Shown: positions 1,152-31,623, counted from the stretch's first letter. The stretch: 64,000 bases of DNA from Escherichia coli (GCF_030013205.1 NZ_CP122648.1), one strand, 5' to 3'. Notes: generated from the letters alone by a model not told the origin. Program-made: numbers and translations.

Positions 1152-1499
1152 ATGAGCACCACTATCGAAAAAATCCAACGCCAGATTGCTGAAAACCCGA
1201 TCCTGCTGTACATGAAAGGTTCACCGAAACTGCCGAGCTGCGGTTTCTCTGCCCAGGCAGTCCAGGCGCTTGCCGCATGTGGCGAACGTTTTGCCTATGT
1301 TGATATCCTGCAGAATCCGGACATTCGTGCGGAACTGCCGAAATATGCTAACTGGCCGACCTTCCCGCAACTGTGGGTTGACGGCGAGCTGGTCGGCGGT
1401 TGTGATATCGTGATCGAAATGTATCAGCGTGGCGAACTGCAGCAGCTGATCAAAGAAACTGCCGCTAAATACAAGTCTGAAGAGCCGGACGCTGAATAA
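1152..1499 (+). CDS. grxD: monothiol glutaredoxin Grx4
   Basis: 115-aa ORF with CGFS active-site motif (KLPSCGFS); recognised as E. coli GrxD. Confidence 0.95.
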   Translation: MSTTIEKIQRQIAENPILLYMKGSPKLPSCGFSAQAVQALAACGERFAYVDILQNPDIRAELPKYANWPTFPQLWVDGELVGGCDIVIEMYQRGELQQLIKETAAKYKSEEPDAE

Positions 1500-1549: not shown

Positions 1550-4500
1550 CTATCCCCAATCCAGTCCTTGTGGCGAACTTGAAAATCCCGCCTCACGCAG
1601 CAGCGTAAACATCGGCGTTTGCCGGACCGGTAGGTCATTCACTTCTGTTAGCGTAAAGCGCAGCCGTGGTTCGCGACGCAGTGCGGTAGTCAGCGCGTGG
1701 AAAATCTCTGGGGCGAGTAATTCCTCTTTTTCCTGCCAGACCAGCATTTTTTTGCCACCTTGCGCCAGATAGAGTAACAATTTGCCGCCAGAAACGACCA
1801 CCAGCGCACCCGCCCGACGCGTTGGTATCAGCGTTGCCGGATGTGCAGGCCAGGGCAGAAGATTTCCCCATGCATTAGCCGGATCGTTGGCGGAGAGCGC
1901 CACTGGTGTATAGTGGCGCGTTTGCGCGGTTTGTGTCGCCAGATCGCGCAATCGGTCAATAGTCAGACGTTCAGCGAATTGCGCGCCACCCAGACCTTCT
2001 ACAAAACGACCTCGCATAATTCGCCCGGAGTCTTCCATACTTCGACAAAGCGTTTGCATCGATGGAAACCCGCCAGGGATATTTTCGGCTATCACCGCCT
2101 GACGACTGATGATGCCGTAGCGGTCGAGCATATTTTCCGCCAGCGCCAGCATCCTTTCGGTATCGTTTAGTGGCTCCACCTGCAATAACGACCAGCGTCC
2201 AGCCAGATTTGGTGTGTTGTAAGACACCCGCGGCGAGACGGGTTGTGCATAGACAGGACGCCCACGACGAGCCCGGTGACTGCGGCGAGTTGAGGTGCGT
2301 GCGTTGGAACTGCTGCGGGTGAGGGCGCGTAACGGTGCCCAAATATCGCTGGTGATGACGACTTGCCAGACCAGCGCCCATAACGCCTCTTGCAGTGCCG
2401 AGGGATCAACCGATTCGCCGATTTTATCGCGTATCCGTTGGCTGATTTGTTGTGCAAACCAGGCTCCTCCGTCAGCCAGAACCGTGACTATCGCTTGCTG
2501 CAGTGCCGAACGATTCGCCTGATTCGCTTCGGCGGGAGTGAACGATTCTGCAGCATATTCCTGTAGATGCAGTGCCACCAGGCCGTCATCTTCACCCAGT
2601 TTTTTTGCCCCGACCAGATAACCGCACCGGTTGCCAGTAATTCATCGAGCATTTCTGGCGAATAGTCGCGTACGCGGGCAGGCAGGATCTGGCTTTCCCA
2701 GAGTGAGGCGGGTAAACCGACTCCGGCAAGCTGTTCGATCACCCGCATGACGCCATCCACGCCCTCATAAACGCCTGGCGATGTTGAGGCAAAGAGTGCC
2801 GGGCTACCATCGGTGGCGGGTAATACGCCCTGACGTTCCAGCAGCAATCGCGCATAGGTCGTGGCCGCAACGGGACGTGTCGCTTCTCTGGCGGCTTGCA
2901 GCGAGCGCAAACGCAGACGACGAAATACTTCATCGCTCACCCAGATGTCTTGTTGCAGATTCATCACCAGCCCCTGTTCGCGCAGTTGCTGAAGTTGCTC
3001 TTCGACAATGGCAATACCGAGACTAAACTCATGAGCCAGTTGTTCAGACGTGACCAGAGCATGAGCCCGGAGATAGCGCAGAAAGAGGTCGCGAAGCGGG
3101 TAACTGACTCGGTGCAAATAAATCTCTGGCAGTGACTCTGGTAGTCGTACGCCGAGAGCATCGCGCAGCCTGGCGGCATCATCCATACAGGCAAGACGCT
3201 CCTGCCCGCTAATCATGGTCGGGAAGATTCGTTTTACTGCAAGAAGATTTTCCAGATACGACGCAATCTCTTCACTGCTGCCTGTATGTCGTTGCGCCAG
3301 GTCTTCAACGGTCATTGGCCCCAGTTCGCGCAGCAGGTCGAACAATCCTTCTTCACCTTTCGCTCTTCTGCCAGGAGCCAGTCGTTGCAACTCTTCTTCC
3401 ACCTGGCGAATGACCTGTGGGTCGAGTAATTCCCCCGGATCGACCTGTCCGAGTAGATTGCGCAGTAACTCGCTGTCCAGCGACAGTACGGATGCCCGGC
3501 GCTCTGCCAGCGGGGCGTCGCTCTGGTACATAAATTCCGCGACATAGCCGAACAATAAACTGGCGGCGAAAGGCGAGGGCGTAGTGGTCGTTACATCGGA
3601 TATTTGAATTTCGCCACCGTTCAGGCGACGCATCAAACGTTCCAGCGCGGGAAGATCATAAACATCTTGCAGACATTCGCGTAGGGTTTCGAGAATGACC
3701 GGAAAATCCGGATATCCCTGAGCGATTTCCAGCAACTGACTGGCGCGCAGCCGTTGTTGCCAGAGCGGGGTGCGATGGCCCGGCGTGCGGCCCGGCATTA
3801 ATAATGCCCGCGCGGCGCATTCGCGAAAACGGGCGGCGAAAAGTGCCGAGCTGCCTACCGCCTCGCGGACAATTTGCAGCAACTTTTCTGGTTCAAACAA
3901 AAAAATCGCGGCATCAGGCAATTTACCATCGGTGTCAGGAATGCGCGCAACAATGCCGTCATCACTGGCTACCACAGACGCGTCAGCGCCCCATAGTGCA
4001 TGTATTCGCCCGGCAATCGCCAGCGCCCAGGGTTCATGCACCCGTCTTCCATAGGGAGAGTGCAAAATAATACGCCAGTCACCAATTTCATCACGGCACC
4101 GTTCGAGGACCAGATGACGACTACCTGGAACGATGCCCGTCGCGTTGCGCTGCTCGTCAATCAACCCCTGAATATTGGCGATCGTATTTTCTTCTGCCAA
4201 CCACGGGGGAATAGTCCCGGAAAAGAACGCGCCATCCGCCAGTAAATGGAGAAAATCGCCGATCATCTCGCCTAATTCTGCCGGACGTCCGTTACCTTCA
4301 CCACGCCAGAAGGGAAGGCGGGCAGAACGACCTGGAGCAGGAGTCACAATCACCTGATCGCGGGTGATTTGCTGGATCCGCCATGAGGTAGCGCCGAGAG
4401 TGATAATGTCGTTCACCCGCGACTCATATACCATCTCCTCATCCAGTTCACCCACCCGCCGCGAACCGGCCTGTTCTTCACCTTCGGGTAATAACACGCT

Positions 4501-6165
4501 ATACATGCCACGATCCGGAATGGTGCCACCGCTGGTAACCGCCAACAGCTGAGCGCCAGGTCGGGCGGTCAATATCCCGGTCTCCCTGTTCCAGACCAGT
4601 TTTGGTCGAAAAGCAGAAAAATCGCCAGAGGGATAGCGCCCGGAAAGCATATCCAGCGTGGCGTCAAAAACACGTCTTGGCAGATCTTTCCACGGTGCGG
4701 CACGGCGTACGCGGGAGTACCATTCGTCTGCCTGTAATGCATCCATCGCCGCGGCGGCAACGGTTTGCTGCGCAAGGACGTCGAGTGGATTATGCGGTGG
4801 TGTCAGGTTTTCCAGCCTGCCTGCGAACATACACTCAACAATGACTGCGGAATCGACTAAATCACGCCTGGTTCGGGGGAAAAAAAGCCCTTTGGAGATA
4901 CCACCTACCTGGTGTCCGGCACGTCCAATGCGTTGTAACCCACTGGCAACAGAAAGCGGCGTTGCCACCTGAATCACCAGATCCACCGCGCCCATATCAA
5001 TCCCCAGTTCGAGACTGGAGGTTGCGACCACACAGCGTAATTCACCCGATTTCAGCGCCTGTTCGGTGATTGCTCGTTGTTCTTTAGAGACGGAGCCGTG
5101 GTGTGAGCGGGCAATAAAAATGTCGCTACTTTGTATACGGTTAGAGGTTGCGCCGGAGGTCGACTCGAAATGGACCGCATCAACGGCGATAGACGGGGAA
5201 CGCTGTAAGCGTGCGGCGTAAAGTTCATTCAATCGTGCCGTCAGTTTTTCCGCCAGCCCGCGTGAATTAGTAAAGACAATGGTCGAGCGATGGCGCAAAA
5301 CTTCATCAAGGATACCCGTTTCAATATATGGCCAGATGGAGCCTTCTCGGCCGGCATGGCTGTCTTCGCCGGTGCCGCTGGCGACCGATGAGACATCATC
5401 CATATTGGCGACCGGTACGACAATCCGTATCTGCGGATGGCGCATTGCGGGCGGGTTTACTACCGTAACCGGGCGATCGCCACCAAGAAATGCTGCAACA
5501 TCGCTGGCTGAGCGTACAGTGGCAGAAAGGCCAATTCGCTGTGCTGAGGTGTGGAGCAGCGCATCGAGCCGCTCCAGACTTAACGCCAGATGCGCACCAC
5601 GTTTACTGCCCGCTACCGCGTGGACTTCATCAATAATTACCGTTTCGACGCCGCGTAGCGTTTCGCGCGCGCGGGAGGTCAGCATCAGATAGAGTGATTC
5701 GGGTGTGGTGATCAGAATATCCGGCGGATTACGGGTGAGTTTGCTGCGTTCCTGTGCAGGCGTATCGCCAGTACGGATCCCCACGCGAAGATTGACTTCC
5801 GTTTCGCCGCGCCGCCGCCGTTCATCGGCAATACCCTGTAACGGGATCTGCAAGTTGCGCTGAACGTCGGTGCCCAGAGCTTTGATCGGTGAAATATAGA
5901 GGATGCGTGAGGTTTTACGTTTATGCGCCTCGCGGGTATCTTCGCCGCCTTCGCGGAAGAGCTGATCGAGGGCGTAGAGAAATGCTGCCAGCGTTTTCCC
6001 GGAGCCAGTCGGTGCAATCACCAGCGCATGTTCGCCTCGCGCCGCCACATGCCAGGTTTGCGACTGGACAGCGGTCGGCTGTTTAAAGGCGCGAAGAAAC
6101 CAGTCGCGGGTTGCCGGTGAAAACACGTCCGGCAGGGGCGATGAAAGGTTTGGATTATCTGCCAT
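1550..6165 (-). pseudogene. lhr: Lhr large ATP-dependent SF2 helicase, interrupted by a -1 frameshift (ORFs 2488..6165 and 1550..2578)
   Basis: 1225-aa ORF has helicase motifs (APTGSGKT, DEVH) and a 342-aa ORF continues the Lhr C-terminal region in another frame; frames meet at the T7 run at ~2600..2606. Confidence 0.85.
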
Positions 6166-6257
6166 TAACGCTATTCCCCGTGAATATCATGCATGATGCG
6201 TGGAATAGCCTCACTATAGATGCCTGAATCATTGCATGTCATCAGGCATCGACTCGA

Positions 6258-6905
6258 TTACACCTCTTCGGCGGCAGGTAGCGGCCAGCCTCCCAGACGT
6301 TTCCAGCGGTTGACGATTTCACAAAACAGCACAGCAGTGCGTTCGGTGTCGTACAGCGCGGAGTGCGCCTGGGTGCTGTCGAAGTCCATGCCAGCGGTCT
6401 GGCAAGCCTTTGACAATACGGTTTGTCCGAGTGCCAGCCCGGCAAGTGCAGCAGTGTCAAAAGTGGCGAAAGGGTGGAACGGGTTACGTTTCAGTGAGGC
6501 GCGTTCTGCGGCGGCCATCATAAAGCTGTGATCGAAATTGGCGTTGTGCGCCACCATAATGGCGCGGTTACAGCCGCTCGCTTTAATGCCTTTACGTACA
6601 ACTTTAAAAATTTCGTGCAGCGCCTCGTATTCGCTGACCGCGCCGCGATCGGGATCGTTCGGGTCAATGCCGTTGAAGGCGAGGGCCTCTGGCTGCAAAT
6701 TTGCGCCGACAAATGGTTCGACGTGGAAATGTAATGTGGTGTCCGGCATCAGCCAGCCTTGTTCATCCATTTTCAGGGTGATGGCGGCAATCTCAAGCAG
6801 CGCATCGGTTTTGGCGTTAAATCCGGCTGTTTCAACATCGATCACAACAGGATAAAAACCACGAAAACGGTCGCACAGACCGGTAAGTTGAGCGTTATCG
6901 GACAT
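6258..6905 (-). CDS. rnt: ribonuclease T
   Basis: 215-aa ORF recognised as RNase T (DEDD exonuclease, VIDVETAGF). Confidence 0.95.
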
Positions 6906-7007
6906 CTGATTCTCTTAATACGGATAAATTGCAGCGCGCATTATGACAAATATTACTTGTCGATGCAGTAAAGATGCGGGCGCGATGAGTTCACGCCCGG
7001 CAGGAGA

Positions 7008-7415
7008 TTAGTTGCCCAGACCGCGACCGGCGTCTTTCTCTTCGATTAACTCAATTTTGTAACCGTCCGGATCTTCCACAAACGCGATAACCGTAGTACC
7101 GCCTTTTACCGGACCCGCTTCACGGGTGACGTTACCCCCGTTTTGACGGATTTTTTCGCACGCTTCAGCGGCGTTATCAACGCTAAGCGCGATGTGACCA
7201 TAAGCCGTGCCGAGTTCGTATTTATCCACGCCCCAGTTGTAGGTCAGTTCAATCACCGCTTCTTCGGTTTCCGGGCCGTAGCCAACAAACGCCAGTGAGT
7301 ATTTGTATTCCGGGTTTTCGCTGGTACGCAGCAGTTTCATGCCCAGTACTTTGGTATAAAAATCGATGGAGCGTTGCAGATCGCCAACGCGCAGCATGGT
7401 ATGAAGAAGACGCAT
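7008..7415 (-). CDS. gloA: glyoxalase I (lactoylglutathione lyase)
   Basis: 135-aa [23 protein letters not shown]... recognised as GloA. Confidence 0.95.
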
Positions 7416-7495
7416 CTTTATATCCTCAAAATGGCTAACAGATTCAAAATGTTGTTTTAGTATAGCGGCGGCTTTGCGCCGCTCGCAATGTTGGA

Positions 7496-8593
7496 TTATA
7501 GCGTCGGGTAATCAGTGTAGCCTTCCGCGCCGCCACCGTAAAAACTTTCGGCACGCTGTGGGTTAAGCTCAGCTTTGCGCTGCAAGCGGGCGACCAGATC
7601 CGGGTTCGCAATCCAGTCACGACCAAATGCCACCGCATCAATTAACCCTTTGCCAATCAGCGTTTCGGCTTTTTCTACCGTGTATGCACCTGCGCCGATA
7701 ATCGGACCGTGGAAACGGGCGCGTACTTTTTCGCGGAACGCATCAGTATACGGTTCACCTCCCGCCCAATCTGGTTCTGACATATGCAGATAAGCAATGC
7801 CGCGTTTACCCAGTTGTTCAATCAGATACAGTGCATCGGCTTCTTCATTCGGGCCGTTATCCGTGTTCTGGAAAGTACCGATTGGCGAAACGCGAATGCC
7901 AATGCGATCGGCCCCCCATTCTTCAATCCCTGCATCGACCACTTCCAGCACCAGACGTGCGCGATTTTCCACGCTGCCGCCGTACTGATCGGTACGATGG
8001 TTTGAAGAAGGAGAAAGGAACTGATGCAGCAAATAACCATGAGCAGAGTGGAGCTCTACCAGATCAAAACCGGCTTCACGCGCGTTAGCAATGGCCTGAC
8101 GGAAATCATTGACGATACCCGGAATCTCTTCCAGTTCAAGCGCACGCGGCATGGATGTTTCAACACGGATCGCCTGACCATTTTCATCGCGCAGAGAAGT
8201 ACGTGTTCCCGCGCTAAGTGCGGAAGGCGCTACCGGTGCCTGACCGCCAGGTTGCAGGCTGGCGTGAGAAATGCGTCCGGTGTGCCACAGCTGTACGGCC
8301 ATATGACCATTTTCAGCATGAACGCCAGCGGTAATTTTTTTCCATGCGGCAATTTGTTCCGGACTATGGATGCCAGGTGCACCAGCATACCCTTTTGCCT
8401 GGGCAGAAATTTGCGTGGCTTCGCTAATAATCAAACCGGCACTGGCACGTTGGCGATAGTATTCCGCCATCAACGGGGTAGGGATGTCACCCGGTTCAAT
8501 ACTGCGCAGACGCGTCAGCGGTGCCATAAAAATACGGTTTGCCGCCGTGATCGCGCCCACTTTCAGTGGGGAATACAGTTTTTCAGATGACAT
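7496..8593 (-). CDS. nemA: N-ethylmaleimide reductase (Old Yellow Enzyme family)
   Basis: 365-aa ORF, OYE-family flavin oxidoreductase; position between nemR and gloA. Confidence 0.95.
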
Positions 8594-8629
8594 AAAGGCT
8601 CCCGGTCGTCTGGTGATAAAAAATGCCTG

Positions 8630-9229
8630 CTAAACGGCAGGCGTCGCAATAATGGTTTTTACATGTGCCAGCGCGTTTTCCAGTGGCTCGGAATTGCGCG
8701 AAATTTTGGCCTGCAGATTCGCACCCAGCCATAGTGCGTAAAGCACTTGTGCCTGTTGCAGCGGTTCGCCACAAAAGGTTAAACAATGGCTATCACGGCC
8801 ATTTTCCAGCGCCTGCGAGAGCAGAACGATCACGCCGCGAGCGCCTTTATCCATCGCGCTACGCATATCTTCTGACAGATCGCACACTTCGGCAGAGAGT
8901 TTTACTGTCAGGCAACCACTGATGGTTCCATGTTGGCAAAACTGGTTCAGTGTTTGCTGGTAATAAGCCAGTATGCGGTCGCGGTAGTTACCTTCGCCGG
9001 ATTGCAGCAACTCAGTCAGTCGCTGGTGATATGCGGCGTAATGGCGCTCAAGCATGGCAACGCCAAACGCTTCTTTAGAGCGAAAGTAGTGATAGAAGGA
9101 CCCTTTCGGCACTTCAGCGGTTTTTAGTAATTCGCTTAGCCCCATCCCGGTGAATCCACGTTGCAGGCAAAGTTGCTCGCCCGTTGCCAGGAGATGTTCG
9201 CGAGTATCATGTTCGGTGTGTTTGTTCAT
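8630..9229 (-). CDS. nemR: TetR-family electrophile-sensing repressor NemR
   Basis: 199-aa ORF with N-terminal TetR HTH; first gene of nemR-nemA-gloA. Confidence 0.9.
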   Translation of the reverse strand: MNKHTEHDTREHLLATGEQLCLQRGFTGMGLSELLKTAEVPKGSFYHYFRSKEAFGVAMLERHYAAYHQRLTELLQSGEGNYRDRILAYYQQTLNQFCQHGTISGCLTVKLSAEVCDLSEDMRSAMDKGARGVIVLLSQALENGRDSHCLTFCGEPLQQAQVLYALWLGANLQAKISRNSEPLENALAHVKTIIATPAV

Positions 9230-26110: not shown

Positions 26111-28807
<2,697 letters not shown>

Positions 28808-29991: not shown

Positions 29992-30207
29992 TTATTGGAC
30001 ATAGTGCCAGACGGACTTCGGTACCTGGCCGAGGTCAAACAAACGCCCGCCAGAAACCAGCTCTGCGCGACGGTGATCGGCAGCACGATACATATTGATC
30101 AGTTCCTGATCGTCCGTCAGGGTGTAATTAAGATGGTCGTAGAGTTTTTCCAAACTTTCGAGTGAACTGATTTTGCGAAATTTTAATAAGTAGTCCTGAA
30201 CAGTCAT
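29992..30207 (-). CDS. cnu: OriC-binding nucleoid-associated protein Cnu (YdgT), Hha paralog
   Basis: 71-aa [37 protein letters not shown]... recognised. Confidence 0.9.
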
Positions 30208-30479
30208 AAAAGGTCCATAAAATAATTAATACCAAAGGGGTAGGTATTATTAGTGATGATAAAACTTCACCAAAAGTGAACGCTTGTGTTATTACAATAA
30301 TAAGAATGCGCTGATGGCAAATATTCAGGGATGAAAAACTGCTCTGAAAAGAGTAACGCGCTTTACTATCTCTGACAATCACCAACAACATCGAACAAGA
30401 TAATAAATTCCTGGTTTAATATCCGACAAGTGAAAACATGCACCCGGACGGGCAGCATGTCGCTCTACAAGCGCAGAGC

Positions 30480-30605
30480 TTACTTGTGTTGTACCGTAGT
30501 ACTCTGTTCAGGTGGCTGATAGTTGTCAATGTGACTCGCCACGCCAAGAAGAATGACTGAAACGACAAGAACGATCCAACCTGTTAATTCAATAAGACGA
30601 TTCAT
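30480..30605 (-). CDS. blr: 41-aa membrane protein Blr (beta-lactam resistance/divisome-associated)
   Basis: MNRLIELTGWIVLVVSVILLGVASHIDNYQPPEQ...; ORF-track ORF 30480..30713 trimmed to internal Met. Confidence 0.75.
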   Translation of the reverse strand: MNRLIELTGWIVLVVSVILLGVASHIDNYQPPEQSTTVQHK

Positions 30606-30691
30606 TACAGCCCACATCTCTGTTGATTGATCCATTAACTTCAGGGGGTAAATGTTACTTAGCAATAATAGCTCCAGCAAGATTTTTACTG

Positions 30692-30699
30692 AGGTTTTT
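30692..30699. repeat. target-site duplication flanking IS1 (aggttttt), left copy
   Basis: Identical 8-mer on both sides of the element (possibly 9 bp, depending on whether the terminal G is counted as IS). Confidence 0.6.
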
Positions 30700-30714
30700 G
30701 GTAATGACTCCAAC

Positions 30715-31218
30715 TTACTGATAGTGTTTTATGTTCAGATAATGCCCGATGACCTTGTCATGCAGCTCCACCGATTTTGAGAACGACAGTGACTTCCGTC
30801 CCAGCCTTGCCAGATGTTGTCTCAGATTCAGGTTATGCCGCTCAATGCGCTGAGTATAACGCTTGCTGATAACGTGCAGCTTTCCCTTCAGGCGTGATTC
30901 ATACAGCGGCCAGCCATCCGTCATCCATACCACGACCTCAAAGGCCGACAGCAGGCTCAGAAGACGCTCCAGTGTGGCCAGAGTGCGTTCACCGAAGACG
31001 TGCGCCACAACCGTCCTCCGCATCCTGTCATACGCGTAAAACAGCCAGCGCTGACGTGATTTAGCACCGACGTAGCCCCACTGTTCGTCCATTTCAGCGC
31101 AGACAATCACATCACTGCCCGGTTGTATGCGCGAGGTTACCGACTGCGGCCTGAGTTTTTTAAGTGGCGGAAAATCGTGTTGAGGCCAACGCCAATAATG
31201 CGTGCACTGGCGCGACAT
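30715..31218 (-). CDS. insB: IS1 transposase InsB frame (expressed as InsAB' by -1 programmed frameshift)
   Basis: 167-aa ORF recognised as IS1 InsB. Confidence 0.9.
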
Positions 31219-31412
31219 CCGACGCCATTCATGGCCATATCAATGATTTTCTGGTGCGTACCGGGCTGAGAGGCGGCGTAAGTGAACTGTAGTTGCCATG
31301 TTTTACGGCAGTGAGAGCAGAGATAGCGCTGATGTCCGGCGGTGCTTTTGCCGTTACGCACCACCCCGTCAGTAGCTGAACAGGAGGGACAGCTGATAGA
31401 AACAGAAGCCAC
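31137..31412 (-). CDS. insA: IS1 InsA (transposition inhibitor / N-terminal part of transposase)
   Basis: 91-aa [26 protein letters not shown]... with GTG start; zinc-finger CxxC...CxxC. Confidence 0.9.
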
Positions 31413-31467
31413 TGGAGCACCTCAAAAACACCATCATACACTAAATCAGTAAGTTGGCAGCATCACC

Positions 31468-31475
31468 AGGTTTTT
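31468..31475. repeat. target-site duplication flanking IS1 (aggttttt), right copy
   Basis: Identical to 30692..30699. Confidence 0.6.
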
Positions 31476-31623
31476 GCGATATTTAGCTTTTGTCGTTGGA
31501 AAATTCGCTATTTTTTTGACTTAAGTTAAACAACATCCCTTATTGCTGGCAGGTTATTAAACTGTTGAGCGAGGGTAAAGGATAGTGTCAAATAGCCATC
31601 ATACTTCAATGAGAGGCAATGAC

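Follow-up and report, generated by a model that had tools for sequence, protein, structure and literature searches.

The window considered here is the whole stretch of 64,000 nucleotides analysed from one Escherichia coli genome (GCF_030013205.1, NZ_CP122648.1), and it carries the gene lhr on the minus strand between grxD and rnt, an order of genes (rnt-lhr/grxD) that is the same in ETEC4079, K_EC180, P15-25, CFSAN061763 and others. E. coli Lhr (b1653; NF007284/PRK09751) is a helicase and uracil-DNA glycosylase formed by an Lhr-Core and an Lhr-CTD. In the window, the gene is divided between two overlapping open reading frames (ORFs), and the features of the locus are as follows.

1152..1499, plus strand: grxD
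1550..6165, minus strand: whole lhr locus, 4616 nt compared with 4617 nt in the intact gene
1550..2578, minus strand: ORF2, 342 aa, with a GTG start (V1197 of Lhr), comprising Lhr residues 1197-1538
2488..6165, minus strand: ORF1, 1225 aa, comprising Lhr residues 1-1188 and 37 out-of-frame residues, with its stop at 2488-2490
2600..2606, minus strand: A7 homopolymer and frameshift site, in frame CAA AAA AAC; A8 in intact lhr
6258..6905, minus strand: rnt

Read directly from the window, the plus strand at the break is CCCAG TTTTTTT GCCCC, with the T7 run at 2600..2606 and CACCCAG as its 5' context; on the coding (minus) strand this is GGG CAA AAA AAC TGG, i.e. a run of seven adenines. Translation shows that ORF1 follows Lhr to ...LLATGAVIWSGQK (K1188) and then passes through 37 out-of-frame codons before reaching a stop, while the second frame reads ...KKLGEDDGLVALHLQ... 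and is stop-free through the A tract down to the usual end of lhr, ...QGLDWG. The two ORFs overlap by 91 nt, and one base added to the tract yields a single Lhr ORF of 1538 aa. The original prediction, that the loss of one base in an A/T run splits lhr and that one extra base restores it, is borne out by both the ORFs and the alignment (1538 aa). Its description of the ORF1 tail as an out-of-frame run to a stop is also correct, although the length given, about 30 codons, has to be raised to the 37 counted here. That lhr is split by a single-base contraction of the tract is a fact of the reading frames and not a statistical signal.

The nearest intact gene is that of ETEC4079 (NZ_CP122643.1), with 4617 nt and 1538 aa (WP_063086027.1). 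Aligned with this gene over 4616 bases, the window lhr shows 0 mismatches and one 1-nt gap, which falls in the A8 tract; when the gap is filled, the product has 0 amino-acid differences from WP_063086027.1, the protein of ETEC4079 and its clone-mates. Against the NCBIfam equivalog NF007284 the restored Lhr scores 3389.7 bits across residues 1-1538, for a cut-off of 1496. In its restored product, in domain order and in the rnt-lhr-grxD context, the window gene resembles that of E. coli Lhr in general, and the difference is that its ORF is broken at codon 1189, where A8 has become A7. The Pfam domains of the restored protein are distributed as follows.

aa 31-218: DEAD
aa 350-417 (349-417 in ORF1): Helicase_C
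aa 446-616: WH_Lhr
aa 679-867: DEAD_assoc
aa 912-1016: WH2_Lhr
aa 1130-1206: WH3_Lhr
aa 1334-1416: WH4_Lhr

Structural studies divide the Lhr CTD into one sub-domain formed by WH2-WH3 and an AlkZ-like sub-domain formed by WH4-WH6 and a beta-barrel, and the CTD nucleates tetramers (PMC8053096). The uracil-DNA glycosylase activity of Lhr requires Asp-1536, and deletion of lhr makes cells sensitive to H2O2 and, to a mild degree, to AZT (PMC10953399). The break had been described as separating the helicase core from the C-terminal domain, and this has to be corrected, since codon 1189 belongs to the CTD itself and, by the Pfam boundaries, falls at the end of WH3. ORF1 contains the full set of Lhr-Core domains (DEAD, Helicase_C, WH_Lhr and DEAD_assoc in Pfam) and retains the Lhr-Core, which extends from aa 1 to about 877-897, together with WH2 and the greater part of WH3; ORF2 corresponds to the AlkZ-like WH4-WH6 and beta-barrel sub-domain and ends in the terminus ...GLD(1536)WG. 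In the sequence as written, the core and the full CTD are consequently not found on one polypeptide, WH2/WH3 being placed in ORF1 and WH4 with Asp-1536 in ORF2.

Judged from sequence comparison, the window is a sister of ETEC4079, within the O139:H1 clone of pig E. coli. Over the 64 kb the two differ only in the tract gap and in one SNP at 27762, in rsxC (minus strand), where the window has A and 18/18 clone-mates have T (RsxC Q159L). The window allele of this SNP is carried by no genome in the collection searched; it could reflect either true divergence or an error of the consensus. Neither this RsxC variant nor the 1225-aa ORF1 product was recovered when looked up as an exact protein. In the same gene, an in-frame tandem repeat is present at 26160..26582, with 96-nt units and about 88% identity between shifted copies (off-diagonal BLAST matches). 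The window and ETEC4079 also have in common a C at 7206, which the other clone-mates do not have, and an IS1 (about 30690..31480) between blr and ydgJ, a site that among 5426 complete genomes is occupied elsewhere only in ETEC4079. ETEC4079 has IS1 at 22 places; the inclusion of such a multi-copy element in a contiguous 64 kb implies that long reads were used to assemble the window.

Among the 18 clone-mates, none has an exact match to the 301 nt around the window tract. A8 was seen directly in ETEC4079, ETEC1748, K_EC180 and P15-25, and was deduced from match lengths for the remainder of the 18. On these alignments A7 is private to the window within the clone, and inheritance of A7 within the clone is excluded, since the clone-mates have A8. 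A total of 11/18 clone-mates, ETEC4079 included, originate from a Belgian project on pig ETEC/STEC. Another frameshift of the window, in pdxY (pyridoxal kinase; 19367..20226, plus strand), lies at about 19690 (T5 to T4 at nt 324) and is annotated also in clone-mates sequenced in Belgium, South Korea and France; being common to clone-mates from three countries, it is taken as a real, lineage-wide pseudogene. The pdxY of K_EC180 has an extra G5 to G4 gap at about 19630.

These relationships bear on the explanation by which a genuine and very recent replication slippage from A8 to A7 made lhr a pseudogene in one isolate. Mononucleotide runs are classical indel hotspots, and the pdxY lesion is evidence that a real frameshift has already become fixed in this clone. 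Against such an event, the shorter tract is restricted to one assembly, no second lesion has accumulated in the window lhr, and a distance of 1 SNP per 64 kb from ETEC4079 leaves little time for it to occur. If the event were real, the product would be Lhr(1-1188) with a nonsense tail of 37 aa, in which the helicase core is kept along with WH2 and the larger part of WH3. Missing from it would be the AlkZ-like sub-domain that bears Asp-1536 and the glycosylase function, and a large share of the CTD through which tetramers form; ORF2 would be translated poorly, if at all. From the published work on Lhr (PMC10953399, PMC8053096), the expected phenotype would be loss of uracil-DNA glycosylase activity, a weaker helicase and some sensitivity to H2O2 or AZT. 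On the whole, a true slippage is considered unlikely, though it retains an appreciable share of the probability.

Tract length was then compared across complete RefSeq E. coli genomes, using as query the tract with 35 nt on each side and requiring identical flanks. The comparison with other E. coli lhr tracts, which had been proposed together with the original prediction, identifies A8 as the norm: this length is found in 2980 genomes, A7 in 18 and A9 in 9 (3007 in total), so that about 0.9% of the complete genomes sharing the flanks have a frameshift call at the tract. Every A7 lhr inspected is already flagged as a 'frameshifted' pseudogene by PGAP, for example in ETEC1738 (NZ_CP122768.1), ETEC1734, ETEC1749, ETEC1706, NCTC9040, OkiPb01695, OkiPb01713 and STEC388. 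These records match the window in the A7 tract and in the way lhr is split but have distinct lhr backgrounds, as the lhr genes of A7 genomes have 50-126 nucleotide differences from the window and also differ from one another. The A7 class is polyphyletic; one shared origin of all A7 alleles is excluded by these background differences, and the A7 events or miscalls are therefore independent.

The genomic surroundings of the A7 alleles are heterogeneous. OkiPb01695 and OkiPb01713, two unrelated genomes from Okinawa, each have A7 and another frameshifted gene less than 16 kb away. No further frameshifted gene was found in the 16 kb around lhr in STEC388, NCTC9040, EC21Z-137 and LR-31. These clean neighbourhoods reject the idea that A7 is confined to error-rich assemblies, and because this link is not universal, any verdict of artefact for the window stays probabilistic. 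The lhr of STEC388 (4477..9092 of the examined locus) has, besides A7, a premature stop at codon 921, which suggests a truly decaying pseudogene. The occurrence of tract variants in both directions, the additional nonsense codon of STEC388 and the A7 genomes with otherwise clean neighbourhoods all count in favour of a genuine slippage.

A tract of variable length might also be regarded as a regulatory device, in which case A7 would be real and would be decoded by a -1 ribosomal slip or by RNA-polymerase slippage (+1 A), or would be phase-variable. Production of the glycosylase half of Lhr would then depend on the tract, which would work as a switch or leaky valve set on or off between strains by A7, A8 and A9, and exact wild-type Lhr (…QKKLGEDD…) would be restored at a low level. 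The polymorphism of tract length among genomes is consistent with this proposal, as is the presence in the ORF1 phase of the heptamer CA[A AAA AAC] (X_XXY_YYZ), at which a -1 shift reads CAA AAA AAA CTG GGT, exactly the wild-type. Such an in-phase slippery heptamer is a likeness to dnaX-type -1 sites, but the window differs from these in having no stimulatory RNA structure and in an arrangement that is not conserved in relatives. The downstream RNA has a minimum free energy (MFE) of -31 kcal/mol, compared with a shuffle mean of -29.0 (z = -0.53), with 54/200 shuffles folding as well, and no SD-like element is present at a suitable spacing. Ribosomes of E. coli shift poorly on A_AAA_AAC by comparison with A_AAA_AAG, and transcriptional slippage is rare on runs of 7. 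Furthermore, 99% of genomes encode an uninterrupted A8, the split into two frames is not conserved (2980 vs 18), and the variants track error-prone assemblies. Considered as a phase-variable homopolymer locus, the tract provides 18 A7 and 9 A9 among 3007 genomes, with many of these variants in assemblies that have other frameshifts. Programmed -1 frameshifting was rejected as the main reading on the lack of downstream structure and of conservation of the split, and recoding or phase variation in any form is regarded as very improbable.

The loss of lhr in nature is documented by lesions of other types. A 4.39-kb internal deletion of lhr is present in about 1046/5425 complete genomes (19%), where remnants of 126 nt from the 3' end and 111 nt from the 5' end are left between grxD and rnt (e.g. 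strain A20, 1550..1778 of the examined locus). In ETEC1748, an IS1-family element (1706..2471 of the examined locus) is inserted 156 nt from the lhr 3' end with an 8-bp target duplication (window-equivalent 1698..1705). This element has no similarity to the window IS1 in blastn, and the two are therefore different IS1-family elements; the ETEC1748 disruption of lhr is unambiguous, independent and within the same clone. These natural lhr-null lineages are comparable to the window in that full-length Lhr is lost in wild isolates, but they carry clear structural lesions, whereas the lesion of the window is of 1 nt and can be mimicked by a sequencing error. The gene being non-essential in nature, a true contraction from A8 to A7 would be tolerated, and this dispensability counts in favour of a real mutation.

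The origin of the assembly is relevant to the choice between a mutation and an error. The Belgian project sequenced 94 pig ETEC/STEC isolates with ONT R9.4.1 only (rapid kit) and assembled them with Trycycler or Flye and medaka 1.5.0, without short-read (Illumina) polishing; in its supplement, ETEC_4077 (complete) and ETEC_4078F (Flye, 99 contigs) share the virulence/AMR identity profile of ETEC_4079 (PMC10151945). The window was probably assembled by this pipeline, with ETEC4077 or a sibling as its source. Accessions CP122648-CP122651 are not part of the RefSeq-based collection and fall between those of ETEC4079 (CP122643-47, with a plasmid as CP122647) and ETEC4075 (CP122652), which points the same way. 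Consensus sequences from R9.4.1 data keep homopolymer indels that produce frameshifts (PMC9262707).

Within the project, A7 is found in 4 of at most 94 genomes, compared with 14 of about 4257 others (odds ratio 13.5, p = 5e-4). This corresponds to a call rate per genome of about 4% in the project and of at most 0.33% elsewhere, a figure that mixes errors and real events, and the higher rate in the likely source pipeline is a further argument against a genuine slippage in the window. The four project genomes, ETEC1706, ETEC1734, ETEC1738 and ETEC1749, belong to at least three lineages. Other lesions accompany A7 in them: the lhr of ETEC1706 has a second gap (C5 to C4), and in ETEC1738 ydhV is also frameshifted near lhr. 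In RefSeq, the essential gene tyrS is 'frameshifted' in ETEC1706 (3392..4667 of the examined locus), and the essential gene ribE is 'frameshifted' in ETEC1734 (30063..30703 of the examined locus; T6 to T5). Since a viable isolate cannot have a frameshifted tyrS, such frameshifts of the project are assembly errors.

The position of the lesion can be viewed in the same context, as the wild-type A8 would be the sole coding homopolymer of at least 8 nt in the window. The longest homopolymer of the window, and its one other run of at least 8 nt, is an intergenic A9/T9 at 20926..20934, between gstA and dtpA; this run is T8 in ETEC1734 and T9 in ETEC1749 and ETEC1738, and is a length-unstable or miscalled tract. 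The lhr lesion resembles the errors known from assemblies based on ONT R9.4.1 only, in that it removes 1 base from the longest homopolymer run within the region's coding sequence and recurs in unrelated genomes of one unpolished R9.4.1/medaka project, beside frameshifts of essential genes. It differs in that the sequencing technology of the window is deduced from its kinship with ETEC4079 rather than documented, and in that no private indel other than this one occurs in the 64 kb of the window.

Taken together, these data favour the explanation that the A7 of the window is a homopolymer under-call of A8 and that lhr would be intact in the organism, to which a probability of roughly 0.75 is assigned on comparative grounds. 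In this sequence of events, the organism would carry lhr with A8, a consensus built from nanopore R9.4.1 reads only would drop one A of the run and give A7, and the window would have come from the unpolished Belgian pipeline, with underlying reads that would be expected to support A8. An under-call is favoured because the tract lacks one base that the clone-mates have, in an otherwise identical lhr with no decay, because the same miscall appears in independent lineages of the pipeline together with implausible frameshifts, and because A8 would be the only coding run of at least 8, where residual errors concentrate. Provided that the window stems from the ONT-only pipeline, the rates of about 4% in the project and at most 0.33% elsewhere would translate into odds of at least 13:1 for an artefact; the uncertainty about the source is the reason for the lower figure of about 0.75. 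Some observations point in the opposite direction: no other private indel is present in the 64 kb, which makes the window a cleaner assembly than those of ETEC1706 and ETEC1734; the tract probably does undergo real changes in length; and the 9 genomes with A9 differ from A8 in the direction less typical of R9.4.1 error. An assembly or base-calling error was the outcome named at the start as the one that would overturn a real deletion, and the comparative evidence leans towards it.

The finding is ordinary on any reading, an identical lesion being already flagged by PGAP elsewhere in the public records. Its practical lesson is that singleton homopolymer frameshifts in long-read-only genomes should be treated as unverified. 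If the mutation were real, it would be a further tolerated case of loss in a repair gene that is dispensable and absent from 19% of E. coli genomes. If, as seems probable, A7 is an artefact, lhr would be intact in this organism, and the case would show that unpolished R9.4.1 assemblies seed public databases with false 'frameshifted' pseudogenes, among them essential genes such as tyrS and ribE.
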